NCBI GenBank assembly: GCA_039188575.1
Contig: JBCCYY010000010.1
Location: forward strand, 4,836-68,835
Reading direction: 5' to 3'
Length of the DNA stretch: 64,000 nucleotides
From: Planctomycetota bacterium
Lineage (GTDB): Bacteria > Planctomycetota > Phycisphaerae > Phycisphaerales > Phycisphaeraceae
Position 1 is the stretch's first letter; the number at the start of each line of letters is the position of its first letter. The position numbers and the translations under genes were made by a program. Shown one piece after another: positions 7,686 to 34,725 of this stretch. The notes under the pieces are model-generated. The model worked only from the letters and a program-made list of their open reading frames with translations. It ran no database searches and had not been told where the DNA came from.

Positions 7686-10600
7686 TTAATCGTTGCGCAG
7701 CGCATCGGTAAGCCGGCCGCTGAGCGCGGGCATCAGGCCGAGCACGATCGCGGCGAGGCCGACGAGCAGCGGGGCGATGTAGGCTAGCGCGGTCGTCCAC
7801 AGGATCAAGCTAGAACTGCTTTGTGCGTGCATCGTGGCGAGCCAAGCACTCGCGCTGCCGAGCGATAAGCCGACGATGAGGATCACCGCGTGCTCGGTCA
7901 GGACGATGCGGGCGATCCGTTTTCGGCTCAGGCCAACCGCGCTAAGTAAGGCAAGCTCGGACCGCCGCTCGAGCAGGTTGCGCGCGGTGACGATGCCCAG
8001 GCCCAGCGAGCCGAGCAAGACGCCGAGCCCACCAAGCGACTGGAAGACGGCGAGGTACGTGTTCTGCACCCGGTTGTACTCCGCGAGGCGCTCGTTCGTT
8101 GGTGTAATCGTCGCGCCTTCATCGACGAGCACTTCGTTGAGCAGCTCTCTTGTTTCGCCAGCGGCTTGCCCCGAGACCGCATCGACGAGCAGCATGCGGT
8201 GGCCTGAGGTCGAAGGGAAGACCCGTTCGAAGTCTCGCTCGTTGATGATCAGGCTGCCCTGGAGGATGGTGTTCTCGATCGTGCCGACGAGTTGGAGCGT
8301 GACCGGCCGGCCCTGCTCGTCCGGCACGGTGACCGTGTCACCGACTGCGATCTTGAGTGCCCACTGCGCGGTGTTGGCGTCGGCGATGACGGGGATCATG
8401 CCGCGCTTATTTGGTGTTGATGCATTCAGAACGCCCCAACCGCTTGCCTTGTAGGCCACCTTCTGAAACCTGAACGCTGCTCGATCGGCGAGCAGCGCGG
8501 GGTCCACACCAAGTAGCCTTGGCGTCGGTGTCTGGTTCAGGTTCAAGCAACTCGCATCGTCGCCACCGCTGACACGGAAGGGCACAACGGAGCCTGTAGG
8601 CAACTCGTCTTCGCCTAGGACGTAGTGGTCTCGGCCGAGCTCGGTATTGAGGTCGTAGCGGATCGGCTGGCTTGTTTCGACGAGTAGCGCGAACCCGCCG
8701 GTACCCGAGGCGCGGTTGGTCGGGTCGTCGGTGCTGCTGAGTTGGAAGCCAGATACAGCGTAGACCAGGAACAGCCCTGCGCCGAGCATGAAGACGCCCG
8801 CAAGCGTACGGCCGCGTCGTCTTGTGAGATTCAAGACCGAGAGCGCGTTGTTCCACCGGAGCAGTGGCCCGGGGCTTTGCCCGCCGCCGCGTCGGATCAG
8901 GACCGTGAAGAGCAGCAGTAGCCCGCCGGCAAACCCAACCCCGCCTGCGGCAAAGCCGAACAGCGCACCGCGCATGCCTGTCTGCGTGTTTGTTATGGCG
9001 AGTAGTAGCGCGATGGCGATACCCGCGACAGCGAGGCCCGCCGTGATCTGCCACGAGAACCGAGAAGCTGACGACACCTTGCCGACACCGCCGGCCAGCA
9101 GTTCCCGCGCATGGTGCTTCGTCAAACCGCGGATTGCGATCGCCATCGCCAGCACGCAGATGATGAGCGTGACGAGCGGTCCAATCACCAGGGTCGTGGC
9201 GGGCATGTGCAGCAGCACGGCCGAGCCTGCCACCGCGCCGGACCACACGCCGGCCAGCGCATTGGTCACGCTGTAGGCGTAAGCCACTGCGCCGCCAACG
9301 CCGAGCAGCGCACCAACGAACGCGACGATCACCCCCTCACCAAGTAGGAGCCGCATGGCCTGACTTCGTGTTAGGCCGAGGGCCAGCAGGGTGCCGAGCT
9401 GTCTCGCACGCTGCTCGGCCGACATCGTAAATAGCATCACAGCCAGCACGATCGCAGCGATGATGATGAAGCCCGACAGCGAGAGGAACAGCTGGCCGAA
9501 GTCGACGGTACCGATCGCGGCGGCGTTGGCCTGGGCTTTGATGTCTGTTACAACGAGACCGAGTGCTTCAGCGTCGATGCGTTCGAGCAGTTGCTCCTCG
9601 GTGATCTCGTTGTCGAAGCGGATCGCAGTCAGTGTGCCGAAGCGGTTGGTCCACAGCCGTTGGCCTGTTTCGAGGTTGATGAAAGCCTTGGGCGTCGCGC
9701 GGTAGTCATCCCAGTAGGCCTCGTCCTTGTCGCGGATACGCGAGCGGTCGATCGCGGGCCCGGCGTCCCATCGTGAGAGCGTGTCCGCTTCGGCCAGCCC
9801 GGGGAAATCAGGTGTGAGCGTGCGGTCAGCGAATTTGCCTTCAAGTGGGACGATCTGTGCGATTGTCAGCGTCGCTGATGCTTCCACGAGACGATCGCCT
9901 TCGTCGGGAAGGAAATAGGTCAGCGTGAGCGTATCACCGATATCGGCGCCCAAGTCTTCGGCAAGCCATTCATTGACCGCGATTTCGTCGTCGGCAAGGT
10001 CCAAGTTGCCGAGCTGATTGGCCGCCGTCACCATGGCGTAAGGCGATTCGTTGCCATCGAGTGCAACAGTATTGACCATATACGTGAGGATGCGTTGGCC
10101 CGGCAGGTCGGCGAGATCGCTCTCAATCGATGGGTCGAGGAAAATACGATCGGTTGCGAGCTCTTGCTGACCGCCGCGCGGCTGCAGGATCAGTTGCAGG
10201 TCATCCAAGGACGGTTCAAAAGGCCCGATCGACTCGGCGGACAAGGCGAGGTTCACCTTGCCGGGTTGCCCGAGTTGGTCGGCTAGCCAATTCCGATCGA
10301 CGAAGACATTCAGTGGAGTCGTCTGTTCGGCACGGAGGCTGAACCGGCCGCCCTCATCATTGCCTGGGACATAGTCTTGGAGATCGACCTGGAGCGCGAG
10401 CGATGGTTTACTCGCGTTGACTAAAGCCGCATCGATCGGCAGTGCCGAGGGTTCAGCTACACGGATGATGAATGTTTCATTTGATTCGAGCCCGAGTTGA
10501 TCCTTCAGTGGTTGGTTGATTAAGACACTGTTCCCAGCGGGAAGAACAGCGATGTTCATCAAACCAGCAAATGCTGCATCGATACCAATCAGCGTGACGT

Positions 10601-10901
10601 TATTCGCTCGCCTGTTTCCATCAGGCGTTGAGGCTACGCCTTCTGCGATGATAACACCGCTGCTACCTTCACCAAATGATTGAGCGAGGCTATCGGTAAA
10701 GAAGCGATCGCCACCGATGACAGCCTGCTCGATGTTGCCGAGGCGTTGTTTCGCCGCTTGCGAGAGTGTGTAACGCATCGAATCCCCGACGAGCAGGGCG
10801 CCGGTGATGACGGTGCTGGCCAGGGCAACGCCTAGCATCACGCCCAGGTTCGTCCGCCAGAAGCGCGACATCGACTGCAGCATGAGGCGGTACAGCGTCA
10901 T
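7686..10901 (-). CDS. ABC transporter permease, tandem MacB/FtsX repeats
   Basis: 1071 aa with two MacB-periplasmic + FtsX-like halves (R..xLGTLLALGL, RRSELALLSAVG). ATGA overlap with the upstream ATPase. Confidence 0.9.
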   Translation of the reverse strand: MTLYRLMLQSMSRFWRTNLGVMLGVALASTVITGALLVGDSMRYTLSQAAKQRLGNIEQAVIGGDRFFTDSLAQSFGEGSSGVIIAEGVASTPDGNRRANNVTLIGIDAAFAGLMNIAVLPAGNSVLINQPLKDQLGLESNETFIIRVAEPSALPIDAALVNASKPSLALQVDLQDYVPGNDEGGRFSLRAEQTTPLNVFVDRNWLADQLGQPGKVNLALSAESIGPFEPSLDDLQLILQPRGGQQELATDRIFLDPSIESDLADLPGQRILTYMVNTVALDGNESPYAMVTAANQLGNLDLADDEIAVNEWLAEDLGADIGDTLTLTYFLPDEGDRLVEASATLTIAQIVPLEGKFADRTLTPDFPGLAEADTLSRWDAGPAIDRSRIRDKDEAYWDDYRATPKAFINLETGQRLWTNRFGTLTAIRFDNEITEEQLLERIDAEALGLVVTDIKAQANAAAIGTVDFGQLFLSLSGFIIIAAIVLAVMLFTMSAEQRARQLGTLLALGLTRSQAMRLLLGEGVIVAFVGALLGVGGAVAYAYSVTNALAGVWSGAVAGSAVLLHMPATTLVIGPLVTLIICVLAMAIAIRGLTKHHARELLAGGVGKVSSASRFSWQITAGLAVAGIAIALLLAITNTQTGMRGALFGFAAGGVGFAGGLLLLFTVLIRRGGGQSPGPLLRWNNALSVLNLTRRRGRTLAGVFMLGAGLFLVYAVSGFQLSSTDDPTNRASGTGGFALLVETSQPIRYDLNTELGRDHYVLGEDELPTGSVVPFRVSGGDDASCLNLNQTPTPRLLGVDPALLADRAAFRFQKVAYKASGWGVLNASTPNKRGMIPVIADANTAQWALKIAVGDTVTVPDEQGRPVTLQLVGTIENTILQGSLIINERDFERVFPSTSGHRMLLVDAVSGQAAGETRELLNEVLVDEGATITPTNERLAEYNRVQNTYLAVFQSLGGLGVLLGSLGLGIVTARNLLERRSELALLSAVGLSRKRIARIVLTEHAVILIVGLSLGSASAWLATMHAQSSSSLILWTTALAYIAPLLVGLAAIVLGLMPALSGRLTDALRND

Positions 10902-11614
10902 GCGGTTGCCCCATCAACGAGCTGGCCTTCTTCAAGCCGAAGCGTCTGGTCCAGACGCTTGGCTAGTGTATCCGCGTGAGTGACCATCAGCATCGCGGTC
11001 TGCTCGGCCTGGTTGAGCTCAATTAACAAGTCCATGATCTGGTCGGCGGTCTTGCTGTCCAGTGCCCCGGTCGGCTCATCGACCAGCAAGAGGGCGGGGC
11101 GGTTGATCAGGGCGCGAACGATGGCGACACGTTGTCGCTGCCCGCCTGAGAGCTGGTCGGGGCGGTGGTGGATGCGGTCACCCAGGCCGACGCGCGTGAG
11201 TAATTCGGTCGCGCGCTGCTGGCTACCCTTGCGGTCGATGCCTTTGGCGAGTGTGGGGATCAGCGCGTTCTCGAGCGCGGAGCACTGGGGGAGCATGTGG
11301 TGCTCCTGGAAGACGAAGCCGATCTGTTTGGCACGGAGATCGGCTTGTTGTATTGCGTTGAGTGAGGTGGTGTCTTTGCCAGCGATCGAGATAGAGCCGG
11401 CGGTTGGTGTGTCAAGAGTGCCGATGAGGTTTAGCAGAGTGGTCTTGCCGCAGCCGCTTGGGCCGATGATCGCGGCGGAATGACCTGTGTGCAGGCTGAG
11501 GTCAATGTCTTTGAGGACAGTCACCTCGCCGCCGTCCGCGTCGGGGTAGGTCTTGGTCAGGCCCTGAACGGACAGGATTGGGCTGTCTGCTGCGTTGGCT
11601 GCGGGTTCGCTCAT
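10898..11614 (-). CDS. ABC transporter ATP-binding protein (LolD/MacB-type)
   Basis: GPSGCGKT Walker A, LSGGQ signature, LLLVDEPTGALD Walker B, H-loop MVTH. Confidence 0.95.
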   Translation of the reverse strand: MSEPAANAADSPILSVQGLTKTYPDADGGEVTVLKDIDLSLHTGHSAAIIGPSGCGKTTLLNLIGTLDTPTAGSISIAGKDTTSLNAIQQADLRAKQIGFVFQEHHMLPQCSALENALIPTLAKGIDRKGSQQRATELLTRVGLGDRIHHRPDQLSGGQRQRVAIVRALINRPALLLVDEPTGALDSKTADQIMDLLIELNQAEQTAMLMVTHADTLAKRLDQTLRLEEGQLVDGATA

Positions 11615-12876
11615 GATTGCACCTCACGCCACCGCTTCGCCTTCATCTCGAATTTGGGTAGCGTGCCTTCCGCGGCCGCGCTAACCGGCACGCGTAGGCT
11701 CAATGCATCTCGCATCGCCTCGGCGATCAGTTTGCAGAGCGCATCGACATCAGTACAACCCGCGCCGGGTTCGATCCTTACAGACAACTCGTGCATCGCT
11801 CCGCTTGTTTCAATCAATACCTCGTATTCCGAAACCTCTTCGAAGCGGCGCACGATGGCATCGATCGCGGAGGGGTAGACGTTGACGCCACGGATGAGCC
11901 GCATGTCGTCGATCCGGCCGAGGATTCCGCCGACGAGCCGCATCGGGTCGGCTGGGTCTTGTTTGACGAGGTCGCCGGTGCGGTAGCGGAGCAGCGGGCA
12001 GGCGGTACGTTTGAGTGTGGTGAGTACGAGCTCGCCTTCGGTGCCGGGTTCAACGGGTTCGGTCGTTTGCAGATCGATGACCTCGACGAGGAAGTAGCCG
12101 TCGACTACACGCAGCGCGTGCGTAGTGCTTCCAGGGGTGTTGTGCTGGTAGGTCACAGGTCCGACCTCGGTCATGCCGTGGTGGTCGTAGAGCCTAGCAC
12201 CCCACGCGGACTCGATGCGCCCGCGCACCGCGGGGAGCGACCCACCGGGTTCGCCCGCGACGATAAGGCGAGCGACGGGTGAGTTGCTGAGGGGTTGCCC
12301 GGCCGCTGAAGCGGCATCGGCCAGGTGGAGGGCATAGGTCGGGGTGCAGCAGATGGTGTTGATGGCGTTGTCGTCGATCATCGCGAGGCGGGCGCTCGTG
12401 CTCATCCCGCCGGCGGGGAGGCACATCAGGCCCATCTGAGCTGCGGCCTCGTAGGCGGTCCAAAACCCGAGGAACGGGCCGAACGAGAACGCGAAGAGTA
12501 CGCGGTCGTCTCGCTTGCAGCCGGCCTGCTCGAAGACGATCTGCCAGACGTCGAGCATGCTTTGCCACGACTGCGGTGTGTCGATGATACGCAGCGGCTT
12601 ACCGGTCGTGCCGCTGGTCTGACAGAAGCGGGTGTACTGGTCGATCGGGAAGCTGTGATTGCTGCCGTAGGGCGGGTGGGCGAGTTGGTCTTCGACGAGC
12701 TGCTGCTTCGTCGTGAAAGGCATCTGCTGAACGAACTGTTCTATGGTGACGTGGCCGGTGTCTTCAAGCCCGGCCGCTTGCAGCAACGGTTGGTAGAACG
12801 CGTTTCCTTCTTGGATTGCGCGCAACAGAGCGCGCAAAGCCTTTGTTGTCGTCGAGTTGTCGATTACGGATGACAA
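11611..12876 (-). CDS. phenylacetate-CoA ligase (PaaK)-family aryl/acyl adenylating enzyme
   Basis: QTSGTTG P-loop, CCTPTYA, VAGEPG, DHHGMTE, PLLRYRTGD, GRIDDM..IRGVNVYPS, PKFEMKAKR. TTG start is uncertain. Confidence 0.85.
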   Translation of the reverse strand: MSSVIDNSTTTKALRALLRAIQEGNAFYQPLLQAAGLEDTGHVTIEQFVQQMPFTTKQQLVEDQLAHPPYGSNHSFPIDQYTRFCQTSGTTGKPLRIIDTPQSWQSMLDVWQIVFEQAGCKRDDRVLFAFSFGPFLGFWTAYEAAAQMGLMCLPAGGMSTSARLAMIDDNAINTICCTPTYALHLADAASAAGQPLSNSPVARLIVAGEPGGSLPAVRGRIESAWGARLYDHHGMTEVGPVTYQHNTPGSTTHALRVVDGYFLVEVIDLQTTEPVEPGTEGELVLTTLKRTACPLLRYRTGDLVKQDPADPMRLVGGILGRIDDMRLIRGVNVYPSAIDAIVRRFEEVSEYEVLIETSGAMHELSVRIEPGAGCTDVDALCKLIAEAMRDALSLRVPVSAAAEGTLPKFEMKAKRWREVQS

Positions 12877-12891
12877 GGGCTATTCCAACAG

Positions 12892-12964
12892 CCGCGATGC
12901 TACGCATCGCAGGATTTACCTGACAGAGTTGGTTGCGAGTCGCCAGCGACGCGTAGCGTCGCGG
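12892..12964. repeat. REP-like inverted doublet
   Basis: CCGCGATGCTACGCATCGC (12892-12910) and GCGACGCGTAGCGTCGCGG (12946-12964) are 17/19 inverted repeats; each arm is itself a 7-bp hairpin with a 3-nt loop. Intergenic. Confidence 0.7.
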
Positions 12965-13501
12965 TTATTCCTGCTGCGCGTTTTCAGTCGGTGTGGGCTT
13001 GCCGTGCGGCACGGGTTTGGGCTTCTGGGTCACGATCAGGTACGCCCCGACCGCCGCAAGCACGATACCCAGGAGGAACAACGGCTTGACCTGGCCCCAC
13101 TGTTTGTCCATCGTGATCGCGACCGCGGCATTCACCAGCGGGGCCCCCGCGAAGATCAGCGACATCACGACCGCTGGCTTGCCGCCCGCTCCGAACGCGA
13201 GCAGCACGCCGAACGCGCCGACGGCTCCGACGATGCCCGCGATCAGCGACCAGCTCATACCGCTGCCGGTCATCTTCCAGTCCGATCCGGTAATGAGCAG
13301 CATCACGAGCGGCGCGAGTACGGCAACGAGGAAGTACGCGATGCCGACGAAGAGGAAGGCCTTGTACCGCGCATTCGGATCACCGGGGCTCATCAGCACC
13401 TGCCCCTTGTGCAGGAAGATGCCGTAGAGCCCCCACGTGCCAATAGTCAGCAGTACGAAGAGGAGGTAGGACGATGAAGAGGAGGAGCTTTGAGCGAGCA
13501 T
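12965..13501 (-). CDS. small integral membrane protein, EamA/DMT-like transporter
   Basis: 178 aa with about five hydrophobic segments and Gly-rich DMT-like motifs (SLIAGIVGAVGAFGVLLAFGAGGKPAVV..LIFAGAP). Confidence 0.6.
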   Translation of the reverse strand: MLAQSSSSSSSYLLFVLLTIGTWGLYGIFLHKGQVLMSPGDPNARYKAFLFVGIAYFLVAVLAPLVMLLITGSDWKMTGSGMSWSLIAGIVGAVGAFGVLLAFGAGGKPAVVMSLIFAGAPLVNAAVAITMDKQWGQVKPLFLLGIVLAAVGAYLIVTQKPKPVPHGKPTPTENAQQE

Positions 13502-13509
13502 ACGGTTTC

Positions 13510-13944
13510 TCAGTTTTCTGGATCAATCACAACGAGGGCCTGGTCGATCTCTGCCGGTAACGACGCGGCCTTAAACTTGCCTTCACCGGCGGGCTTGATA
13601 GCGTAAACCACCTTGAGCGTGCCGGTTGCGATCGGGTCGGATTCGTCTGCCTTGCGGAACGCGAAGCCGTAGGTCACGGACTTGTTGGTCTTGGCTTTGA
13701 CAAAGACATCGACCGTGAAGACGTCCTCAAAGCGAAGCGGCTTCTTGTAGTCGCACGCCGCACTGACGCGGGGGAAGCCCGCTACGTCGTCGCCGATATC
13801 GCGATGCACCGATAGGCCAAGGTCGCGGAGCAGCGCGTGCTCGGCGTCTTCCATGTACCGGAAGAAGTGCGAGAAGTGCACGATGCCCGCGGCGTCGGTC
13901 TCGCTGAAGGCGACGCGTCGTGTCATGCGGAAGGTGCTAGGCAT
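13510..13944 (-). CDS. 4HBT/YbgC-family hotdog acyl-CoA thioesterase
   Basis: RRVAFSETDAAGIVHFSHFFRYMEDAEH signature; CDYKKPLRFED. Confidence 0.9.
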   Translation of the reverse strand: MPSTFRMTRRVAFSETDAAGIVHFSHFFRYMEDAEHALLRDLGLSVHRDIGDDVAGFPRVSAACDYKKPLRFEDVFTVDVFVKAKTNKSVTYGFAFRKADESDPIATGTLKVVYAIKPAGEGKFKAASLPAEIDQALVVIDPEN

Positions 13945-15221
13945 GCGGCCTCCAGGGCGGTTACGACGTGCAGTGACATGTGCTCGGCGGTAAACTGCTC
14001 GAGGACGGCTTTGCGTCCGACTTGCCCGAGCGCTCGCATCCGGGCAGGTTCGCTGATCAGCTCGGCGAGCTTGTCGGCCAGCGACCCCGGGTCGTCGGGT
14101 TCATACAAGATACCCCCGCCGGTGAGGGCGACAACCTCGGCCAGCCCCGCGTGGTTGGGCTCGATCACGGGGACGCCGCAGGCGTTGGCCTCAAGGACGT
14201 ACAGTCCGAAGGATTCGCCGTAGCTCGCGGGCACACTGAGCACGGACATCCCGCGCAGCAGGTGGGCCTTGTCTTGTAGGCTGACGTTGGTCTCGATGAG
14301 CACGCGGTCGGCCAGGCCCGCATCCGCCAGCCGCTTGTGCTGCTCATCGACGTAGCGCATATCCTTAGGCGAGGCCGCGCCGGCCAGGTGCAGGCGTGCG
14401 TTACCCAGCCGGCCGCGCTCATGCAGCAGTAGCACCGCGTCGACGAGCGTATGCAGCCCCTTGTTCTCGCAAAGCCGGGCGAAGAAACCGATTACCGGCG
14501 GGTCGGGCGGGTTGTCTTGTGGTTTGTAGTGCTGGGCCTCGATGCCGTTGTATACCACGCGGATCCTCTCGAACGACAGACCCATCCGGTCCGCCATCAC
14601 GTCCGCGTGGTACCGGCTGACCGGGAGGAACAACGCGACATCCCTCGCCTTCTCGGCGAGCAGTTTCCAGGCATTCGACCGCCAAGGCTCGGGCAGCGAA
14701 TCGATAAATGTATCCTCGCCCTGCAGGGTGCAGACCACCGGGCAGCCCATTACCTTGACGATCGGCTCGGCCAGGCCGAGCAGCAGCGCGTTGTTGAGCA
14801 GCACAACGTCTGGCGAGCCCTCTTGCCTGAGGTGTTGGATGAGGCGGTCGATTTCCAGACGTGTCTTACCGTGCTCGCCTAGTAGCATCTGCTCGGTCAT
14901 CCGGCCGAGTTCCTGTGGGCTGGTCATGTCGGCTCGGTTCGATGCCTTGCGCAGAAGCCCCGGCCGGTCGAGCCAACGCATCGCGGTGTTGGGCATGATG
15001 CGGAACAGCGCAGACTTCGCCTGGAGGTACAGGCCGATGCCACCCATGCTCACGTCATCGCCGTCGATGCCCTCTTCATTGTCGAGGACCAGCGGCAGGT
15101 AGAGCGCGTTGATCGCGGCGTCATGGCCGAGCTTTCGCAGCCCCCGCACGAGCGACTCGTCGTGCAGGCAGCTGCCGCAGTGAAAGTTGCCGGTGCCGGG
15201 CGTGAGGAGGAGGACTTTCAT
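13923..15221 (-). CDS. glycosyltransferase family 4 (GT-B) with N-terminal CxxC
   Basis: MKVLLLTPGTGNFHCGSC; C-terminal GT1 domain GFFARLCENKGL...ESFGLYVLEANACGVP. An alternative GTG start exists at 15281. Confidence 0.9.
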   Translation of the reverse strand: MKVLLLTPGTGNFHCGSCLHDESLVRGLRKLGHDAAINALYLPLVLDNEEGIDGDDVSMGGIGLYLQAKSALFRIMPNTAMRWLDRPGLLRKASNRADMTSPQELGRMTEQMLLGEHGKTRLEIDRLIQHLRQEGSPDVVLLNNALLLGLAEPIVKVMGCPVVCTLQGEDTFIDSLPEPWRSNAWKLLAEKARDVALFLPVSRYHADVMADRMGLSFERIRVVYNGIEAQHYKPQDNPPDPPVIGFFARLCENKGLHTLVDAVLLLHERGRLGNARLHLAGAASPKDMRYVDEQHKRLADAGLADRVLIETNVSLQDKAHLLRGMSVLSVPASYGESFGLYVLEANACGVPVIEPNHAGLAEVVALTGGGILYEPDDPGSLADKLAELISEPARMRALGQVGRKAVLEQFTAEHMSLHVVTALEAACLAPSA

Positions 15222-15285
15222 GGGGTTCGTCAGAGCACGAAGCGCAAGCGAGTGCCCCAGGTTCTCGATGTTCTGCGTCACTCGC

Positions 15286-16569: not shown

Positions 16570-16577
16570 GGCAAATA

Positions 16578-18517: not shown

Positions 18518-18521
18518 GGGC

Positions 18522-22257: not shown

Positions 22258-22356
22258 GTCTGGATACAACTAATGGGTGTACGTATTATTGCAGGTATTA
22301 CACAACAGCCTGCATTTTGCACTGGGTGTGCATGAACAAGACGATAAAAAACGCGT

Positions 22357-23481: not shown

Positions 23482-25117
23482 GTTTCTTCGGGAAGAACCG
23501 CTCGATGGTGGATTGTTCCGGGGCCTTCGTGGCAAGGGATACTAGGACCAGCGAGCCGACCGAGGCGGCAAAGATAAAGATCGCCGGCATCATGCCCACG
23601 ACGAGGTATTTGGCCTTGGTCTGTTCGCCGAACACCTTTGGGCCGGTGTTGATGATGTCGTCCCAGAAGAACAGTGACCAGGTGCCGACGGTCGCGATCA
23701 CGCAGGCGATCGCACCTGCCTTGGTCGTCCGTTTCCAGTACAGCGCCGCAAACACCAGCGGGAACAGGCAGCCAAAGCCTGTGAAGCACCACACACCCAG
23801 GTCGAAGACGTTCGTATCCAGCAGCAGCAGCGACAATACGTACGACACGGCGACGATGACGAGGACGAATCCTCGGGCCAGCCAGATCATCTGCTTGTCG
23901 CTGAAACGGTCTTTACCTGCCACCCGTGCGACGATATCGTTGGTAAACATCGTGCCCAGGCAGACGAACTGGGAATCGAGCGAGGACATGATCGCAGCGA
24001 GGATGCCGGCGGTGAGCAGGCCGGTCACCAGCGGGTTCTCGACGAGCGTCCGCACGATCGCGCCGAGAGCCGCATTGGCGTTGGGCGTGCCCGCGTCCGT
24101 CAAGGGCAGACGCAGGTCGCCCGCCGCGTACAAACCCGCCGCCCACATGCCCACGATCACGCAGGGCACCCAGACCAGCATCATGAAGAACGGGTGCAGC
24201 ACCACGGTTGCCCTGAAGGTCTTCGCCTTCTTGGCCGTCATCCAGTGCTGAAAAAGGTGGGGGAACATCCCCACCGACAGCGGGATGACGAAGTAGCTGA
24301 AGAAGTAGGTCTTACCCATCAGGGAACGGTCGGCATTCTCCGGTGACTCTCTGAGCACCATCTTCGAGGCTTCGACCGGGCCACCCAATGCGTTGCTGAT
24401 GAGGATAAACGCGGTGACGCCCATGATCATGAAGACGATCGTCTGGAAGGTATTGGCCCATGCTGCCGAGCGCACTCCGCCGAACAAGACGTAGCACAAC
24501 ACAACGAAGCAGACCACCAGGGCCGTTAGCCATGGCGGGATACTGCCGGAAATCCGCGCATGCGTGCCGTCATCGTTGAGTACCGGAAACAGGTCTGGGA
24601 ACATGCCCATTGTGATCGGGACCATTGTCTTGCAGGCCGAAATGATGCCAACGAGCAGATAGGGGATCACGAGCGCGACGAGGATCGGGAAGAGTATCCA
24701 GCCCAGGGCGGGCGACTCGAAGCGGTCGCGGAAGAACTGGACCTGTGTCACGTAGCCGTATCGCTTGCCGATGGCCCAGAGCTTGATGCCGATGACGAAA
24801 AAGATGGCGGAGTGCAGCAGCCCGGAGTAAGACGCCATCAGCCCGTAGACGCCGACGCCGAGTTCGAAAGATTTGCCCGACGAACCGACCAGTGCGAAGC
24901 CGGTCATCGTTGTGCCGAAGACGGACATCAGCAGCAGGAACGGCCCGATGGACCGCGAAGCGACAAAGTAGTCCTTACTCGTACCTCGGAAGAAGGTAGC
25001 GGAGAAGATACCCAGCAGCAGCAGCAGGGCGAGGTAGCCGCAGATCACCCACAGTGGGAGCTTCGAGACATCGGCCACAATCAGATATTGCGGACTGGCA
25101 ACCAGCGACACAGTCAT
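23474..25117 (-). CDS. sodium:solute symporter (SSS; PanF/MctP-like)
   Basis: DYFVASRSIG, TTMTGFALVGSSG, AGILAAIMSSLDSQ, about 13 transmembrane segments. Confidence 0.95.
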   Translation of the reverse strand: MTVSLVASPQYLIVADVSKLPLWVICGYLALLLLLGIFSATFFRGTSKDYFVASRSIGPFLLLMSVFGTTMTGFALVGSSGKSFELGVGVYGLMASYSGLLHSAIFFVIGIKLWAIGKRYGYVTQVQFFRDRFESPALGWILFPILVALVIPYLLVGIISACKTMVPITMGMFPDLFPVLNDDGTHARISGSIPPWLTALVVCFVVLCYVLFGGVRSAAWANTFQTIVFMIMGVTAFILISNALGGPVEASKMVLRESPENADRSLMGKTYFFSYFVIPLSVGMFPHLFQHWMTAKKAKTFRATVVLHPFFMMLVWVPCVIVGMWAAGLYAAGDLRLPLTDAGTPNANAALGAIVRTLVENPLVTGLLTAGILAAIMSSLDSQFVCLGTMFTNDIVARVAGKDRFSDKQMIWLARGFVLVIVAVSYVLSLLLLDTNVFDLGVWCFTGFGCLFPLVFAALYWKRTTKAGAIACVIATVGTWSLFFWDDIINTGPKVFGEQTKAKYLVVGMMPAIFIFAASVGSLVLVSLATKAPEQSTIERFFPKKHD

Positions 25118-25362
25118 TGTGCGTCTCCGTCGGGCTGTTCAGCATCGCCATCGATTTCATCCGCCCACGCCTCGACCTCGCTGGGCCAAGCGAACCTCAC
25201 CGCGAACGCCCAAAGCGTGACCGCGCACATTGAGAAACCCGCGTGGTACGCCAACGAAACAGGGATAAAACCGAACACCAGGTCATTGTTGTCCCAGTTC
25301 CAGAAGTCCTGGTGCAGGATGAACATCAGGCAGAAAATGATGAGTATGATTTTTTTGCCCAT
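25114..25362 (-). CDS. DUF3311-like small membrane partner of the SSS transporter
   Basis: 82 aa, LHQDFWNWD...FGFIPVSLAYH, two transmembrane segments; ATGA-coupled to the SSS gene. Confidence 0.8.
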   Translation of the reverse strand: MGKKIILIIFCLMFILHQDFWNWDNNDLVFGFIPVSLAYHAGFSMCAVTLWAFAVRFAWPSEVEAWADEIDGDAEQPDGDAQ

Positions 25363-25378
25363 GGCGAGTTCTCATACA

Positions 25379-25447
25379 GGAGGGCGGGGCTCTTTGGCGA
25401 GCCGCGAATCAGAGAGGGCCTTCGGCTCGGCAGGAGCCCCGCCCTCC
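25379..25447. repeat. planctomycete-type REP element (RLGRSLALP/GEAPAEP family)
   Basis: 14-bp perfect arms GGAGGGCGGGGCTC / GAGCCCCGCCCTCC with inner GAGCCG/CGGCTC pair; intergenic. The plus strand translates as RLGRSPALP. Confidence 0.75.
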
Positions 25448-25456
25448 CTGATAGCT

Positions 25457-27019
25457 TTACTGCGCATCCTCCGCTATCGCGTAGAGGTGGGACTGCGTCG
25501 CGACGTAAAGCACGCCGTTCGCCGCGATCGCACTGGAGTAGATCGGCGCGGGGAACTCGACCTCGGCGAGCAGTTTCTTCTCCGGGCCGGCTTCAAGGAT
25601 CGTCAGGATGCCGTCCTCGTTGCCGAGGAAGACTTTGCCGTCCGCGACAAGCGTGGAGGACCAGATATGGCCGAGCGTGTCGTGGTGCCACTTCTTCTCG
25701 CCGGTCTTTGCGTCTAGGCAATAGAGGTTGCCGGAGTAGTCCGCGGCGTAGACCAGGCCTTTGTGAACGCTCACGGTTGAGATCGTGCGGTCGATTTCTG
25801 TGAAGTCCCAGACGACCTTCGCGATACCGTCGGTAACCTGGGTCGGGTCGATGGCGATGAGTCGGCCGACCCCCTCGCCGTGCTCGGGGTCCTGGCCGAT
25901 TGGCGCGTAGATCAAGCCGTCGTGGATAACCGGCGTCGCGATGTACTCGCTGGGGCCCGGCGGGGTGGCGTAGGGGATCGGCTCGCCTGCCTCATCGAAG
26001 CGGTAGGAAGGCAGGTTGCCGTCGACCTTCCATCGCTCGGGGAGGATGTCGAAGTCGTCCTCGTCCTTGACGGTCTTGGTGTCGTAGCCGTAGACAAAGC
26101 CGTCGCCAGCCCCGAAGACGACGGTGGCCTTGCCGTCGAAGGTACCAAACGATGGGCTGGACCAGTTGCAGTGCAGGATGTTCGGACCGATTCCGCTTCC
26201 ATCTTCGCCGACGAGCTCGCCGGTCTCCGCGTCGAGTGCGATGAGCGAGGGCGCGTTGGGTGCCGGGACATTGATGTGCGACCAGTCCACGCCGTTGGAG
26301 GTCGCGACGTAGAGCACGCCGTCCACGGCAAGGCAGGAGTTGGAGGTGATGTTGTGCGGGAAGACGTTGAGCTCCTCTCGCATGTCGTACTTCCAGATGA
26401 CGTCGGCGTCCTTGGGACCGATCTCGATGGGCGGCTTGCCCTGGCCGGCGTAGTAGGCGCTCTCGTCCTGGAAGCCCTGGTTTCCGTTGGCCATGCCGTT
26501 GAGGTCGAGGCAGACGATCTCGCAGAGGTTGCTGACGACGTAAACCCGGTCGCCGTAGACCGCGGGCGAGGAGCACATGCCTAGGAACTCCCAGTCGCTG
26601 ACCTTGCCCGCCCCGAGCTTGTGCAGGCTGAACTCCCAGATGAGTTCGCCGGTCTTTTCGTCGAAACAGTAGAAGTTGGAGCGGTCACCCTGGTACTTGG
26701 GATCGCGGGGCGTTTCGTTGTTTGTACCGACCAGCACGCGGCCCTGCGAAACCACGGGGTTTCCAAAAGCCTGGCTGCCGAGCTTGGCGACCCACTTGAT
26801 CTTCTTTTTCGTGTCCGGGTCGATCTTACCGGTGCGCCCGATCTCTTCGCCGGGGGCGAAGTCGAAGGGGATCGGCCCGCTATCTGGCGCGACCATGTTG
26901 CGGGAGCCATTCAAACCCCAGACGGGCCAGTCTTCTGCGGAAGAGGAGGATGTAACCGCAGATGAACACAGATAAACGCAGATAAAGGCAGCAAGCCCAG
27001 TCGTTTGTTTTTTCATCAT
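25457..27019 (-). CDS. secreted PQQ-binding-like beta-propeller protein
   Basis: Signal peptide, EDWPVWG...RNM, repeated W.. / SSP / LYCLDAKTGEKKW blades. Confidence 0.9.
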   Translation of the reverse strand: MMKKQTTGLAAFICVYLCSSAVTSSSSAEDWPVWGLNGSRNMVAPDSGPIPFDFAPGEEIGRTGKIDPDTKKKIKWVAKLGSQAFGNPVVSQGRVLVGTNNETPRDPKYQGDRSNFYCFDEKTGELIWEFSLHKLGAGKVSDWEFLGMCSSPAVYGDRVYVVSNLCEIVCLDLNGMANGNQGFQDESAYYAGQGKPPIEIGPKDADVIWKYDMREELNVFPHNITSNSCLAVDGVLYVATSNGVDWSHINVPAPNAPSLIALDAETGELVGEDGSGIGPNILHCNWSSPSFGTFDGKATVVFGAGDGFVYGYDTKTVKDEDDFDILPERWKVDGNLPSYRFDEAGEPIPYATPPGPSEYIATPVIHDGLIYAPIGQDPEHGEGVGRLIAIDPTQVTDGIAKVVWDFTEIDRTISTVSVHKGLVYAADYSGNLYCLDAKTGEKKWHHDTLGHIWSSTLVADGKVFLGNEDGILTILEAGPEKKLLAEVEFPAPIYSSAIAANGVLYVATQSHLYAIAEDAQ

Positions 27020-27088
27020 TCAATCCATTTCACTTCGTATTTGTTGTTTTAGTTTTCAATCTGCGTGTATCCACGTTCATCCGCGGTT
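26954..27088. repeat. 30-bp inverted repeat pair (3 x 10-nt AAC(G/A)CAGAT-type units) enclosing a start codon
   Basis: AACCGCAGATGAACACAGATAAACGCAGAT (26954-26983) versus ATCTGCGTGTATCCACGTTCATCCGCGGTT (27059-27088): 25/30 complementary, 75-nt loop. Confidence 0.8.
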
Positions 27089-27103
27089 CCAAACGCTTCG
27101 ACT

Positions 27104-29488
27104 TTATGGCTTAGGTTCTACTTTCACGTTGTCTACATACACGCGGTGTTTGGACTGCGGGGAGAAGCCGTAGATGCCCGGGCTGCCCTCGGTGTGGCAG
27201 ATCGGGACCTTGACCTCGATGGTCCAGTCCGCGGGCTCGTCCTCGCCCTTGGGCCAGGCCTTGCCGTATACAGTGCCCGTGCCGTCTTCATTAGGGACGA
27301 CCGCCGACTTGATCGTGTACCAGTTCTTGGCAGACCATTTGAACGGCACGGTCTCGGCGATGCGGTTGTGGTTGGAGCTGACCTCGATGGCCTGCTTGTT
27401 GCCATCCAGCACGATGAGGTAGCGCTGGTTGATGACGCCGACGACGCTCATGCCCCGGCGGTTGCCATCACTCATCACATCCGCCTGCACGGTGTAGCCC
27501 GTGTCATCGGGGTGGCCCAGAAAGATCATGGAACGCTGGAAGAGGACACGGTCAAGCGTCTTGGCGAGCACTTTGTTGTCGCCATCGTCGTACGGGTCGT
27601 CGCGGACCTGCCACTTCAGCCGGGCCCCGATCCAGGGCAGCGGCGGGTGGGCGTAGGCGACGCTGTCGTTCTGATCAGTCAGGCTCAACTCGAACGCCTG
27701 GAAGTCGAAGCTGTACGGCGGGACGGGGAGGATGCGCCCGCGCGTTGTGCCGGATATGTTCGCGGGGTTAGATGCTTTGAACGCACCGGCCGAAGGCGCA
27801 TTGGCATCCGACGCGGTGATGGTTGTTCCGTCTATGCTCGCATCCATCTCGACCTTGACCCGCGCGGTCGGTGGAATGAATTTTTTGAATGTCATACCTG
27901 TAACACTGTCGGACAGCTGCATGCCATGACGATCAATGGTCTTGGTAGTTGGTGTGACGGCCTCGCCGGGCTTGAGCAGGAATTCTGCAGGCGTGATCAT
28001 GTACTTAACCGGAGACACTTTAAAGGTCGGTGACGGTCTACTTGCCAAAGCTGTTGTCCCGCCGCTGTCGTTGCCGAAGCAGTAAAGCTTGTCGGTGGTA
28101 TGCACGTAGATTTTGCCGTTCCACACGGTGACGTTGCCAATGCATTTGCCTGCGAGCTTGGTCTGCACGGTATCCGTCGGCTCGGCACGTCCGGGGGTGA
28201 CAACCGACAGGCCATCGTTCCAGTAGGGGATGTACAGCTTGCCGTCCGCGTAGAGCGGGGAGGCGTGCAGCTGGCTCGCGCCTTGTTTCTTCTGCCAGAG
28301 CGTATGGCCGGTCTTGGCGTCCATCGCGATGAGCCTGCCGTCTAGAGCACACTGGTAGACGACACCATCGACGATGACAGGCGAGCTGGTAAACATGCTG
28401 ACATCGTTGTTGCGCCAGACGACCAGGTCGTCTTCGATCTTGACCGGCTTCTCATCACTTTGTAGCGCTTGTACCAGCGCCTGGTCGGCACGGATGGCGA
28501 TCATGTAGCCCCGGCCGGAGTCGCCGACGTTTTCCTTACCGTGCACCTGGATGATCAGGTCGTCGCTAAGCACGTCGGGCGTGCCGTTGTTGTAGATGAT
28601 GGGCGAGGCGTTGACGCCGCCGAGGGACATCTGGTAGCGCCAGAGCGGCTGGCCGGTGCGGATGTTGACGCAGACGAGGTTGCCGCAGCCTGTACCGGCG
28701 TAGAAGACCCGGTAGCCCTGACGGTTTTCGATATGAGGGGTCGAGAACGACGAGTCGGCCAGGAAAGGTGGCCCCACGCCGGGCGTGGAGGACCAGATCA
28801 GCTCGCCGGTATTCTTATCGAAGGCGTAGAAACGGTTTCGTGCCGGCCCCTCGGATCCCCAGTTCGTGGAGATGATGTTGACGATGGCGAGCTGGCCGTC
28901 GATGGTGACGACGCCGGTCCGGCCGTTGGGGAAGGTCAGCCGGCCGTACTGCTCCTGCAGTGAGATGCGCCAGAGCTCGTTGCCATCCCGGTCTAGTGAG
29001 ATGAGCAGGCCCGGCGAGGTGTGGATGAATACGTTGCCGGTCTCGGGGTCGATGGTTGGCCCGCCGATGCTGTAGCGGTTGTAGACGATGTCGGAGATGA
29101 AGTCGGCGTAAGAGCGTGACCAGACCTCTTCGCCGGTCTCGGGATCGAGGCAGTAGAGGGTCTCGGTGAGCTCAGCGCCCTCGCCGGGGTAGCCGAGGAC
29201 AAAGAGTCGGTTGCCCTCGGGGTACTCGGCGATGGCGGCGGTGCCACGGCCCGGCACATCCAGAGTCCAGCGGAGGTTGGCGTCGTCGCCTTCAATGATG
29301 GCTTGCTTGGGCAGACCGGTCTGGTTGCTGATGCCGGTCTGGTCGATGCCGCGCCAACTGAGCTTGCCCTTGATGGGGCTGTTCGGGCCGCCTTCCGGCG
29401 GAGGGTGCAAGATTCCGGTCTTTGTGCCACAGCCAACCGCGAAGGCGATGAGGAGGAAGAGCGGAGCGATGCGCGGGATCAGAGACAT
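27104..29488 (-). CDS. PQQ-binding-like beta-propeller lipoprotein with C-terminal beta-sandwich (lectin/DUF1080-like) domain
   Basis: Lipobox FAVGC; SWRG start of propeller; LYCLDPETGEEVW, SSPVIVDGVVY, LHASPLYADGKLY; C-terminal beta-rich domain ending VYVDNVKV. Confidence 0.85.
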   Translation of the reverse strand: MSLIPRIAPLFLLIAFAVGCGTKTGILHPPPEGGPNSPIKGKLSWRGIDQTGISNQTGLPKQAIIEGDDANLRWTLDVPGRGTAAIAEYPEGNRLFVLGYPGEGAELTETLYCLDPETGEEVWSRSYADFISDIVYNRYSIGGPTIDPETGNVFIHTSPGLLISLDRDGNELWRISLQEQYGRLTFPNGRTGVVTIDGQLAIVNIISTNWGSEGPARNRFYAFDKNTGELIWSSTPGVGPPFLADSSFSTPHIENRQGYRVFYAGTGCGNLVCVNIRTGQPLWRYQMSLGGVNASPIIYNNGTPDVLSDDLIIQVHGKENVGDSGRGYMIAIRADQALVQALQSDEKPVKIEDDLVVWRNNDVSMFTSSPVIVDGVVYQCALDGRLIAMDAKTGHTLWQKKQGASQLHASPLYADGKLYIPYWNDGLSVVTPGRAEPTDTVQTKLAGKCIGNVTVWNGKIYVHTTDKLYCFGNDSGGTTALASRPSPTFKVSPVKYMITPAEFLLKPGEAVTPTTKTIDRHGMQLSDSVTGMTFKKFIPPTARVKVEMDASIDGTTITASDANAPSAGAFKASNPANISGTTRGRILPVPPYSFDFQAFELSLTDQNDSVAYAHPPLPWIGARLKWQVRDDPYDDGDNKVLAKTLDRVLFQRSMIFLGHPDDTGYTVQADVMSDGNRRGMSVVGVINQRYLIVLDGNKQAIEVSSNHNRIAETVPFKWSAKNWYTIKSAVVPNEDGTGTVYGKAWPKGEDEPADWTIEVKVPICHTEGSPGIYGFSPQSKHRVYVDNVKVEPKP

Positions 29489-29526
29489 GCTTAGGCCCTG
29501 TTCGGGGGAGTGGACTAATTCCAGAA

Positions 29527-29547
29527 AAAGTACTGTACACGTACTTT
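29527..29547. promoter_or_regulatory. candidate MarR operator palindrome
   Basis: AAAGTAC-TGTACAC-GTACTTT: perfect 7-bp arms, in the spacer between the divergent operon and the marR gene. Confidence 0.7.
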
Positions 29548-29555
29548 ATAGTCAA
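29527..29555 (-). promoter_or_regulatory. sigma70-type promoter of the 17-gene operon
   Basis: Minus strand TTGACT (29555-29550) - 17 nt - TACTTT (29532-29527), ending about 40 nt upstream of the ATG at 29488. Confidence 0.65.
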
Positions 29556-29573
29556 GCGGGATGACGTTAGAAT
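29545..29573 (+). promoter_or_regulatory. candidate promoter of the marR gene
   Basis: TTTATA (29545-29550) - 17 nt - TAGAAT (29568-29573); ATG at 29596. Confidence 0.45.
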
Positions 29574-29595
29574 CCTTTTGCATCTTACGCACGCT

Positions 29596-30084
29596 ATGAC
29601 GCCACCCAAGCCCCCGATTGATGATCCGCACCGCCGCCGGCTGCCGCCGCTGCTACGGCGTTGTTGGTACGGTTTAAACCAGGCGTTTCGTAAGCGGCTG
29701 GCGATACTTGGGATCACGCCCAATCAGTTCACGGTCCTGCGCTGGCTGGAGGAAGATGATGGCGGCGGCGTCCGCCAAGCTGAGATCTGCTCGCGGATGG
29801 CCAGCGACCCCAACACCATCGCGGCCCTGGTCGAGCGGATGCAGTCCGACGGGCTGATCAAGCGGAAAACCGACCCGACGGACCGCCGGGCCCGCCTGAT
29901 CTCGCTGACCCCCAAGGGCCGACGCGTCTATGCCAAGGCCCGCCCGGTCGCGGTCGAACTGCAGGAAGAGGTGCTCAAGGCGATCCCCGCGGGTGAACGC
30001 GAGAGGCTGCTCGAGCAGATCGAGATCCTCGCGGATGCGTGTCAGGTCGCGCTGGAAGGCGAGGCGGAATCATCCGCGACTTAA
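29596..30084 (+). CDS. MarR-family transcriptional regulator
   Basis: GITPNQFTVLRWL...RQAEICSRM.SDPNTIAALVERMQSDGLIKR..DPTDRRARLISLTPKGR. Confidence 0.95.
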   Translation: MTPPKPPIDDPHRRRLPPLLRRCWYGLNQAFRKRLAILGITPNQFTVLRWLEEDDGGGVRQAEICSRMASDPNTIAALVERMQSDGLIKRKTDPTDRRARLISLTPKGRRVYAKARPVAVELQEEVLKAIPAGERERLLEQIEILADACQVALEGEAESSAT

Positions 30085-34710: not shown

Positions 34711-34725
34711 ATTGGCTCTAAGAAG

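Follow-up and report, generated by a model that had tools for sequence, protein, structure and literature searches.

Clusters of the Bmp6/Bmp5 type make small halogenated phenolics from 4-hydroxybenzoate (4-HB). In these clusters, and in the tetrabromo-biphenyldiol cluster of marine Gammaproteobacteria, a chorismate-lyase-type enzyme adjoins a flavin halogenase with no polyketide synthase (PKS) or non-ribosomal peptide synthetase (NRPS), and heterologous expression of a chorismate lyase with a flavin halogenase gives bromophenols from 4-HB (PMC10579414). Within Planctomycetota, the pair BaaA/BaaB was proposed to make 3,5-dibromo-p-anisic acid in Planctomycetales strain 10988, an assignment that was unconfirmed genetically (bioRxiv 10.1101/723874) and that a 2025 review still calls postulated (PMC12078418). 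Here we describe a 17-gene operon (g01-g17) with a divergent MarR-family gene (g00) on a 64,000-nt stretch of DNA, hereafter the window, from a marine planctomycete (Planctomycetota bacterium, GCA_039188575.1, contig JBCCYY010000010.1, positions 4,836-68,835) whose nearest relatives are metagenome-assembled genomes (MAGs) of Phycisphaeraceae. The operon belongs to a known kind, aromatic biosynthesis by chorismate lyase and halogenase; what is new are its added modules and its unusually wide, phylum-coherent distribution. We give roughly an even chance to the reading that it would direct the biosynthesis and export of a small chorismate-derived aromatic compound, tailored by steps that include halogenation.

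The operon shares with the Bmp systems the adjacency of lyase-type protein (g10) and halogenase (g11), the lack of a PKS or NRPS, and a marine host. Unlike those clusters, which include the cytochrome P450 Bmp7, it encodes no P450, and its lyase falls outside the Pfam models; it adds a HemN-like radical S-adenosylmethionine (SAM) enzyme, a propeller, a CoA ligase, a thioesterase, a carboxylate reductase, a family 4 glycosyltransferase (GT4) and an ATP-binding cassette (ABC) exporter. We take g11 to belong to the two-component, FADH2-dependent halogenase family that carries WxWxIP, and Bmp5 to be a single-component enzyme. The baaA-baaB locus, which we could compare by its description only, comes from the same phylum and likewise places a chorismate-lyase-like protein beside the most halogenase-like flavoprotein of its genome; unlike in the operon, no radical SAM, reductase, glycosyltransferase or exporter genes are described there. 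Neither of two collection scans nor a 301-genome sample of the phylum recovered the baa locus of strain 10988.

Other parts of the operon recall other systems. GriC adenylates an aromatic acid, 3-amino-4-hydroxybenzoate (3,4-AHBA), which GriD reduces to the aldehyde (PMC10179220). The GriC/GriD pair of grixazone and the EhpF/EhpG pair of the Pantoea phenazine have their counterparts in g05, which is homologous to EhpF along its entire length, and possibly in g06, which aligns with an aldehyde dehydrogenase (ALDH)-family gene that lies beside an EhpF-like gene; unlike in those pathways, identities are 28-37%, phenazine and 3,4-AHBA genes are missing, and the pair is coupled to a sodium:solute symporter (SSS) importer and an iron-containing alcohol dehydrogenase (Fe-ADH). 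HemN-like radical SAM enzymes form class C, whose members methylate aromatic rings at sp2 carbons. With members of that class (HemN, HemW, ChuW/HutW, NosN/NocN and MenK/MqnK) g09 shares the fold and the cluster-binding CxxxCxxC motif, yet it scores below every curated cut-off and has no haem or quinone genes nearby; its CRKRCHFCYF stretch presumably lacks the fourth Cys of HemN. In mycobacteria, the DUF98-type lyase Rv2949c feeds 4-HB to the adenylating enzyme FadD22 and glycosyltransferases, and the resulting p-hydroxybenzoate derivatives and phenolic glycolipids are exported. Structure comparison likewise ranks a DUF98 protein first for g10, a likeness at the level of the fold. The operon differs from the mycobacterial system, which is not known to have a PKS, halogenase or radical SAM enzyme, in its ligase family and its exporter. 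The preliminary description of this DNA knew of no characterised cluster with this combination of genes, and our full-text literature searches found none; they returned no paper that combines a chorismate lyase, a radical SAM enzyme and a halogenase, and none that links Verrucomicrobia, a flavin halogenase and chorismate.

The 17 genes form a single conserved, tightly packed unit. As the preliminary description stated, they are co-oriented over 21.8 kb: in the list of open reading frames (ORFs) they run on the minus strand from 29488 down to 7686 (21,803 bp), and all eight start/stop overlaps quoted there are present. Nine junctions overlap, itemised as six by 4 nt (25114/25117, 19646/19649, 17144/17147, 11611/11614, 10898/10901 and, if ATG 20812 is the start of g07, a sixth at 20809), one by 22 nt (13923/13944) and one at 23474 (g04/g05) whose length varies with the choice of start; the overlaps at 23474 and 20809 hold under every candidate start. 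Gaps of 4, 4, 8, 8, 84, 87, 88 and 94 nt separate the genes at the non-overlapping junctions. The arrangement is far beyond chance, because the whole gene order recurs in distant genomes. In tblastn searches with all proteins, the full order was kept in two congeners at 59-86% identity and in three other families of Phycisphaerales at 35-62%, and full gene sets were also found in the cultured Planctomycetales bacterium ZRK34 (CP050848) and three further Planctomycetota families. One lineage is rearranged, with g10 and g11 relocated as a unit to behind g15. A search with g05 in 41 related genomes was positive for 11 of 14 congeners, 1 of 10 other genera of the family and 4 of 16 genomes of other families in the order. 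Two congeners that are 98% complete lack both g05 and g10, and the cluster is thus dispensable. With its 17 genes and MarR, the window holds the largest version among the loci examined.

Beyond Planctomycetota, two collection scans with g10 alignments gave at least 519 and 362 confirmed loci. Their hosts are Phycisphaerae and other Planctomycetota, Verrucomicrobiota and Acidobacteriota (Bryobacterales, Terriglobia and Vicinamibacteraceae), the three phyla in which the preliminary description had proposed to look for co-occurrence, as well as MAGs labelled Sumerlaeia, Armatimonadota, Methylomirabilota and others. We counted the neighbouring genes at 67 loci with complete 10-kb flanks around the g10 homologue, a limit that undercounts the outermost genes. 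The most frequent neighbours were g09 (85%), g11 (79%) and g08 (72%), followed by g12 (46%), g13 (45%) and g15 (the three ranging over 42-46%), g16, g14 and g17 (24-30%), g05-g07 (18-22%, with g07 at 22%) and g02-g04 (13-15%, with g02 at 15%); MarR and unrelated flanking genes stood at 0-1%, and a paralogous flanking propeller, u4, at 10%. The single 17-gene system first proposed is therefore a conserved unit, but it is not an indivisible pathway: the cluster is modular, and around four core genes (g08-g11) it gains or lacks accessory modules from lineage to lineage, namely GT4/4HBT/g14/PaaK-like ligase; the LolD/double-FtsX exporter; SSS with the EhpF/EhpG-type reductase and Fe-ADH; and extra propellers.

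The same modularity is visible within Planctomycetota, where the g10 family occurs in 43 of 301 sampled genomes (14%; 30 of 238 genera). Regions retrieved from twelve of these 43 genomes included reduced forms with g09-g11 alone, with g07-g11, or with g01, g02 and g07-g10 without the halogenase, and one form that has the reductase and SSS modules with no ligase, glycosyltransferase or exporter within its 20-kb stretch. In relatives, g07 is sometimes present without g05 and g06.

A FastTree phylogeny of concatenated g09, g10 and g11 from 89 loci, for which we have local support values only and phylum labels as given by submitters, sorts the sequences by phylum. Acidobacteriota fall into a single clade (support 97); Verrucomicrobiota make up another, well supported, which takes in a few bins with odd labels. 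Planctomycetota need three label changes; none of 200 label shuffles scored as low. The tree argues for mainly within-phylum inheritance, without proving it. Nine loci with a verrucomicrobial-type cluster bear the record labels Bifidobacterium, Klebsiella, Chitinophaga pinensis or Akkermansia muciniphila. Members of this group that were included in the tree fall within the verrucomicrobial clade, and the nine are probably mislabelled or contaminated bins.

Within the core, g11 passes every sequence test for a flavin-dependent halogenase, as judged from matches and motifs. Nine of its top ten PDB matches are labelled halogenase (E 5.8e-62 to 3.2e-35), among them 8zop (5.8e-62), 3e1t, PltA, 5bul/5bva, 5buk, CmlS, ChlB4 and RadH; the remaining one, 3nix, is labelled only flavoprotein/dehydrogenase, and the first reductase or monooxygenase matches appear at E 1e-16 or worse. 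We take 3e1t to be CndH, 5bul/5bva to be Bmp2 and 5buk to be Mpy16, and the solved halogenases nearest g11 presumably act mostly on carrier-tethered substrates. A publication describing 8zop could not be traced in the literature. Four motifs are invariant or nearly so in 43 orthologues: GxGxxG (GAGPAG), Lys75, GWFW[YH]IP and FxDPxFSxG (FLDPVFSSG). The NCBIfam CmlS model gives 203 bits against an equivalog cut-off of 900, and Pfam and NCBIfam scans found no flavin reductase among the operon proteins.

For g10, a Foldseek search with the predicted structure returned AF1396 (DUF98; E 8.6e-8, TM 0.65-0.77), then GntR-type effector domains, and E. coli UbiC at TM 0.50-0.62; we take DUF98 to be the family of the mycobacterial chorismate pyruvate-lyase Rv2949c. 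An hhalign alignment with UbiC, weak overall, lines up the DxMT, PLGR and LYGR motifs and places R79 with the arginine of REILL. A second residue, E177, lies past the end of that alignment and one position off the catalytic Glu of UbiC (UbiC reference residues R76 and E155), and both R79 and E177 are invariant in 44 orthologues. We infer from this that g10 represents a new sequence family with a chorismate-lyase/UTRA fold, plausible catalytic residues and, putatively, lyase activity.

The third core enzyme, g09, matches several NCBIfam models, all under their cut-offs: HemW (172.5 bits against 205.4), STM4012 (171.5 against 380), ChuW/HutW (170.9 against 400) and HemN (161.3 against 325). In the PDB it matches HemN (1olt, 117 bits) and NocN (93 bits). 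The CxxxCxxC motif (C66, C70 and C73) and a YFGGGTPS motif are invariant in 46 orthologues, and by these measures g09 is a conserved subfamily of its own, tied to g10 and g11. The fourth member, g08, is predicted to be an exported propeller. The nearest Foldseek matches of its model are designed propellers, with BamB and tetrathionate hydrolase as the top natural ones; no PQQ (pyrroloquinoline quinone) enzyme or quinoprotein dehydrogenase is among the top 50. Apart from one invariant GGCD motif, the residues that never vary in g08 are nearly all Gly and Trp with structural roles. Given the BamB-like fold and the mostly structural nature of the invariant residues, 'PQQ-like', the term first used for the propellers, names a repeat type and not a function.

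These assignments suggest the following outline. A hydroxybenzoate, most simply 4-HB, would be released from chorismate by g10 and chlorinated or brominated on the ring by g11, and g09 may add or rearrange a one-carbon unit on the ring or its precursor, C-methylation having the best precedent. In the Phycisphaeraceae version, g15 would form a CoA thioester of the acid that g13 would later hydrolyse. Such a CoA tether could replace a carrier protein, an attractive idea because the nearest solved halogenases use carrier-tethered acyl groups and no carrier protein fits in the operon. The EhpF/EhpG (GriC/GriD)-type pair g05/g06 would reduce the carboxylate to an aldehyde and Fe-ADH (g07) would take this to a benzyl alcohol; g12 would glycosylate the product, and the ABC machine g16/g17, possibly assisted by g14, would carry it across the envelope. 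The exported propellers (g08, g01, g02 and three encoded upstream of MarR) may act on or with the product outside the cytoplasm. MarR would probably repress at a GTAC-rich palindrome and be released by a phenolic ligand, and the SSS/DUF3311 transporter would import a substrate, for which the carboxylate for the reductase module is the simplest guess. The preliminary description had drawn a similar chemical route, with a 4-HB intermediate, an order of steps, radical SAM methylation and glycosylation of the aromatic; on the family names it is plausible, and our confidence in any single tailoring step is much lower than in the mechanistic outline.

Several observations weigh against an aromatic biosynthesis and export operon. 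The proposed lyase, g10, has no Pfam or NCBIfam match, and none of its 44 orthologues matches a Pfam chorismate-lyase model even at E <= 1; what stands of the earlier label 'chorismate-lyase-like' is thus the fold and the motifs. Its hhalign score against UbiC of E. coli K-12 is weak (E 3.8e-4, probability 36%), and its fold is common to the ligand-binding domains of GntR regulators. The reaction of g09 is a guess, with about equal scores on HemW, ChuW, STM4012 and HemN. The nearest solved halogenases use tethered substrates, yet the operon encodes no carrier protein. Many core-only loci lack the ligase, and since many lineages keep such a core the halogenase may act on the free acid; about one-fifth of loci, including L184, have no g11 nearby, and halogenation may therefore be optional. 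Six exported propellers and an SSS importer have no obvious place in a simple secondary-metabolite pathway, and retention of a pathway within phyla across such distances is unusual for an antibiotic-type product. Three metagenome runs (marine) hold the window sequence, all of them DNA.

Some of these features would suit an aromatic that is not secreted free but serves as the head group of an envelope glycoconjugate or glycolipid, in loose analogy to the p-hydroxybenzoate glycosides and phenolic glycolipids of mycobacteria, activated by the ligase, glycosylated by GT4, flipped by g14, extracted by the ABC system and handled by the propellers. The GT4, the small polytopic membrane protein and the LolD/double-FtsX transporter adjoin one another and travel as a module; transporters of this type serve the extraction of lipoproteins or envelope components (LolD, 260 bits); the g08 model folds like BamB, an outer-membrane assembly factor; PEP-CTERM proteins are encoded just upstream of the operon; and phylum coherence fits a structural role better than an antibiotic. 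We nevertheless regard such a role as unlikely: Pfam and NCBIfam scans of the operon turned up no enzyme that forms lipids, no acyltransferase, no polyprenyl-phosphate glycosyltransferase and no carrier protein, many lineages have the core with no GT4 or transporter, and its absence from two nearly complete congeners means that it is not an essential part of the envelope. Retention by phylum would also suit a small aromatic ligand or prosthetic group that the cytoplasmic enzymes make and the ABC system delivers to the exported BamB-type propellers, as their cofactor or effector; the propellers would then be the purpose of the locus. In the genome of the window (4.15 Mb), six of about 18 PQQ_2/BamB-type propeller proteins (g08, g02, g01 and the products of three genes upstream of MarR) are encoded within 17.6 kb (18522-36075), against an expectation of about 0.08; in other families as well the cluster has propeller genes at its flanks, g08 belongs to the core at nearly three-quarters of loci, and in another family a lone g10-like gene adjoins that of a 1567-aa propeller protein. 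Against a propeller ligand stand the resemblance of g08 to BamB and a cofactor-free propeller hydrolase and not to quinoproteins, the nearly all structural character of its invariant Gly and Trp residues (GGCD motif apart), the distance of every propeller from the PQQ-dehydrogenase cut-offs and the absence of the cluster from close relatives. We also know of no halogenated cofactor, and consider this idea quite improbable.

A third reading reverses the flow, with exogenous aromatic acids imported by SSS for salvage, detoxification or catabolism, transformed by the ligase, thioesterase, reductase and alcohol dehydrogenase, and sensed by MarR, the flavoenzyme being an oxygenase. MarR regulators often control aromatic catabolism, and the catabolism of aryl-CoA classically employs PaaK relatives and 4HBT thioesterases; in the operon the importer is translationally coupled to the reductase module, and g00 has weak NCBIfam matches to HpaR and Saro_0803. 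We think catabolism distinctly improbable all the same. A core protein with a chorismate-lyase fold would supply an aromatic acid from within the cell, g11 keeps the Lys and WxWxIP that define halogenases over oxygenases, the exporter and glycosyltransferase are conserved parts of the set, and Pfam and NCBIfam scans found no ring-cleavage, beta-oxidation-like or dearomatising genes. The chance that the 17 genes are several unrelated operons lying side by side is very slight. In its favour, there is room for internal promoters in four gaps of 84-94 nt, g05 is followed by a weak terminator-like hairpin, a strong hairpin lies between g01 and g02, and modules occur separately in other lineages; synteny essentially excludes this explanation, however, as families and classes with 35-62% identity retain the full order when the flanking helicase and other neighbours are not kept, and nine junctions overlap.

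Several more specific assignments were considered and set aside. A role for g10 in ubiquinone synthesis was rejected because the genome has no 4-HB prenyltransferase above cut-off (79 against 275 bits) and encodes two proteins of the MqnA/MqnD family, which belong to the futalosine route to menaquinone. That the propellers are PQQ quinoproteins was ruled out by scores for g01, g02 and g08 (37-105 bits on TIGR03075, the PQQ alcohol dehydrogenase model, with g01 at 49.8, against a cut-off of 480) and for g08 also by fold. A quinoprotein-maturation system, with a QhpG/LodB-like flavoenzyme, a radical SAM enzyme, a propeller and an ABC transporter, was considered since QhpG scores 140 bits; it was rejected on the stronger halogenase matches and invariant motifs, a radical SAM enzyme that is HemN-like and not of the SPASM type, and the lack of room for a precursor peptide (gaps <=94 nt). 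An aryl-polyene, xanthomonadin or flexirubin-type cluster was discarded for want of a ketosynthase or carrier protein.

Flavin halogenases usually sit in sporadic, horizontally scattered antibiotic clusters. The module described here occurs in several hundred or more species-level genomes of three or more little-studied phyla and groups by phylum, and its halogenase comes tied to a radical SAM subfamily that is uncharacterised, a chorismate-lyase family that had gone unrecognised and a propeller that is exported. Identification of the product would give four protein families their functions in a single stroke. It would also bring to light a metabolite, probably halogenated, that is common among Acidobacteriota and bacteria of the Planctomycetes-Verrucomicrobia-Chlamydiae (PVC) group in the sea, fresh water and soil; the 17-gene version would illustrate the joining of a carboxylate reductase, a glycosyltransferase and a type VII ABC exporter to the core. 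A bolder proposal, to which we assign a low probability, is that the core is an old module, passed down mostly inside each of the phyla Planctomycetota, Verrucomicrobiota and Acidobacteriota, for a halogenated, one-carbon-modified aromatic that serves the cell's physiology beyond the cytoplasm. If true, the compound could act as a propeller ligand or prosthetic group, or as an envelope phenolic glycoconjugate, and phyla that are mostly uncultured would have a functional molecule of a new, halogen-containing class. The producers appear to be menaquinone-only and lack a 4-HB prenyltransferase, so a halogenated 4-HB analogue could poison the ubiquinone or plastoquinone synthesis of neighbours and spare the producer; a related bromophenol inhibits plastoquinone synthesis (PMC10579414). 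Lacking a PKS, an NRPS or any other core on which detection rules are built, the operon would probably escape rule-based cluster finders.

Table 1. Genes and sequence elements of the operon and its surroundings, in window coordinates.
Feature	Coordinates	Strand	Length (aa)	Evidence
g00, MarR-family regulator	29578..30084	+	168	Divergent; Pfam MarR_2 5.3e-13, MarR 1.5e-10
Putative divergent control region	29489..29577			Palindrome AAAGTAC-N7-GTACTTT at 29527-29547, adjacent TTGACT hexamer
g01, exported protein with PQQ_2/BamB-type propeller	27104..29488	-	794	Pfam PQQ_2 1e-29; syntenic within Planctomycetota
Long-range RNA stem, g01-g02 junction	26954..27110	-		29 bp; MFE (minimum free energy) -47.9 kcal/mol, z -4.87
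g02, exported PQQ_2/BamB-type propeller protein	25457..27019	-	520	Pfam PQQ_2 1.3e-19
g03, small DUF3311-like membrane protein	25114..25362	-	82	Pfam DUF3311 28.8 bits, cut-off 30; adjoins SSS gene in all relatives carrying it
g04, SSS family	23474..25117	-	547	Pfam SSF 6.1e-37; under all named NCBIfam subfamily cut-offs
g05, EhpF/GriC-type adenylating subunit	22357..23535	-		PDB EhpF 3l2k/3hgu E 1.9e-38, residues 41-392 against 23-366
Weak terminator-like hairpin with T-run	22353..22367	-		Right behind the g05 stop, within the 87 nt that separate g05 from g06
g06, divergent ALDH/LuxC-like protein, putative EhpG/GriD-type reductase partner	20809..22269	-		Pfam Aldedh 7.7e-16, LuxC 0.0018
g07, Fe-ADH	19646..20896 (start probably ATG 20812)	-		Pfam Fe-ADH 9.9e-48, ADH_Fe_C 1.4e-34
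g08, exported eight-bladed BamB-type propeller	18522..19649	-	375	PQQ_2/BamB repeat; AlphaFold2 (AF2) model pLDDT 94
g09, HemN-like radical SAM enzyme	17144..18517	-		Pfam Radical_SAM 2.6e-24
g10, chorismate-lyase-fold protein	16578..17147	-	189	AF2 model pLDDT 91.7 from alignment of 44 orthologues
g11, flavin-dependent halogenase family enzyme	15286..16569	-		PDB sequence search and motifs
Inverted repeat across g11 stop and g12 start	15233..15300			28-nt arms, 82% complementary, 12-nt loop
g12, GT4 glycosyltransferase	13923..15281	-		Pfam Glycos_transf_1 7.2e-26
g13, 4HBT/YbgC-type hotdog thioesterase	13510..13944	-		Pfam 4HBT_2 2.8e-11; TIGR00051 57 bits, under cut-off
g14, polytopic membrane protein	12965..13501	-	178	No Pfam match at E <= 0.001; several hydrophobic spans; weakly DMT/EamA-like
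g15, PaaK-family acyl/aryl-CoA ligase	11611..12876	-		Pfam AMP-binding and AMP-binding_C_2
g16, LolD/MacB/YbbA-type ABC ATPase	10898..11614	-		Pfam ABC_tran 2.7e-37; LolD TIGR02211 260 bits, cut-off 308
g17, permease with two FtsX domains	7686..10901	-	1071	Pfam FtsX, two stretches, 9.3e-19; type VII ABC, MacB/LolCE/YbbP-like
Helicase-nuclease downstream of g17	1225..7122	-	1965	DUF4011, AAA_11/AAA_12, MTES_1575 restriction-endonuclease-like, DUF3320

Family searches agreed with most of the names first given to the genes (Table 1), namely flavin halogenase, HemN-like radical SAM, Fe-ADH, PaaK-like, 4HBT, GT4, SSS and MarR; the supposed MacB-type ABC exporter was found as a LolD/MacB-type ATPase with a double-FtsX permease, g17 coming after g16 in all relatives that carry g16. 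The stated lack of a PKS/NRPS core also held, as Pfam and NCBIfam scans of the operon proteins returned no such core, no ketosynthase and no carrier protein. Every NCBIfam match lies under its curated cut-off, and hence no operon protein is a named equivalog. Other names had to be loosened. The suggested EhpF/GriC plus EhpG/GriD pair stood for g05, whose homologues on plasmids are labelled 'arylcarboxylate reductase' or 'phenazine biosynthesis protein' (34-37% identity, 91% coverage); g06 is ALDH/LuxC-like and a candidate partner subunit through its full-length match (28% identity, 472 columns, E 1e-28) to an ALDH-family gene that, on a Streptomyces plasmid, neighbours an EhpF-like gene. DUF3311 fell just short of its Pfam cut-off, the EamA label for g14 is weak (2 of 11 orthologues match, best E 0.0016), and the 'PQQ-like' propellers proved to be of the PQQ_2/BamB repeat type, none near the PQQ-dehydrogenase cut-off. 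On the PaaK models g15 reaches 183.8-190.6 bits against cut-offs of 646-700, which makes it a family-level relative only; its nearest solved proteins are 2-hydroxyisobutyryl-CoA synthetase (1.4e-49) and then PaaK (1.9e-40). The nearest solved structures for g12, all at low score, are Tll1590 (6kih), D-inositol-3-phosphate glycosyltransferase (7qsg) and other group 1 glycosyltransferases.

By gene position and motif, MarR is a candidate regulator of the operon. Its gene is divergent and an operator-like motif is conserved, as the palindrome proposed to be an operator is real and its core is kept in congeners G002 and G003, where TTGACT...AAAGTACGTGTAC, the -35-like hexamer with the left part of the palindrome, recurs between differing flanks; GTAC repeats also occur in G033, from another family. 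The sigma70 promoter, by contrast, is a consensus match only, and MarR itself is confined to part of Phycisphaerales: it is kept in divergent orientation in four of six genomes compared (G002, G003, G033 and G038), and was found beside the cluster neither in G027 and G037 nor at any of the 67 fully flanked loci from other lineages. The best NCBIfam match of g00, under its cut-off, is BagL/FevM. A consensus scan of 7000-26999 gave no convincing internal promoters, and the operon region holds no known RNA family or riboswitch at Rfam gathering scores. The hairpin after g05 could attenuate expression between the two reductase subunits. The ribosome-binding site of g02 and its start codon both fall inside the long stem at the g01-g02 junction. 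G002 has a comparable stem whose arms are related in sequence, and G033 has a different, perfect 22-bp hairpin (z -4.4) at this junction. The stem may be an element for mRNA processing, stability or translation control. A further inverted repeat spans the end of g11 and the start of g12.

Upstream of MarR lie three further propeller genes, flanked by genes for two PEP-CTERM-tagged proteins and one protein with an N-terminal pilin-type methylation motif (30194-32024 and 37739-38860). The second and third genes beyond MarR are syntenic in congeners. On the other side of the operon, the helicase-nuclease is possibly defence-related, and its gene is not kept beside the cluster in relatives.

Some lineages have neighbours of their own. 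Clustering of 1079 neighbourhood ORFs yielded mostly antisense shadow ORFs, the sole real addition being a lineage-specific right-handed beta-helix protein (Beta_helix/GH141-like, about 730-750 aa, apparently extracytoplasmic) at nine Verrucomicrobiota loci, where its gene immediately precedes g10 and, at loci that have g09, separates the two. FeoA/FeoB genes follow the cluster directly at three Verrucomicrobiota loci, and a Fes-family 'putative esterase' gene lies behind the ligase gene at three Bryobacterales loci; these neighbours are too sparse for a link to siderophores or iron, which we rejected, and are a hint or a coincidence. Three complete genomes of one Planctomycetota family carry divergent lone g10-like genes (85-120 bits) with no halogenase or radical SAM gene near them; their neighbours encode a SpoIIE phosphatase, a glycoside hydrolase-like protein and a Ser/Thr kinase, and one of the three adjoins the gene for the 1567-aa propeller protein.

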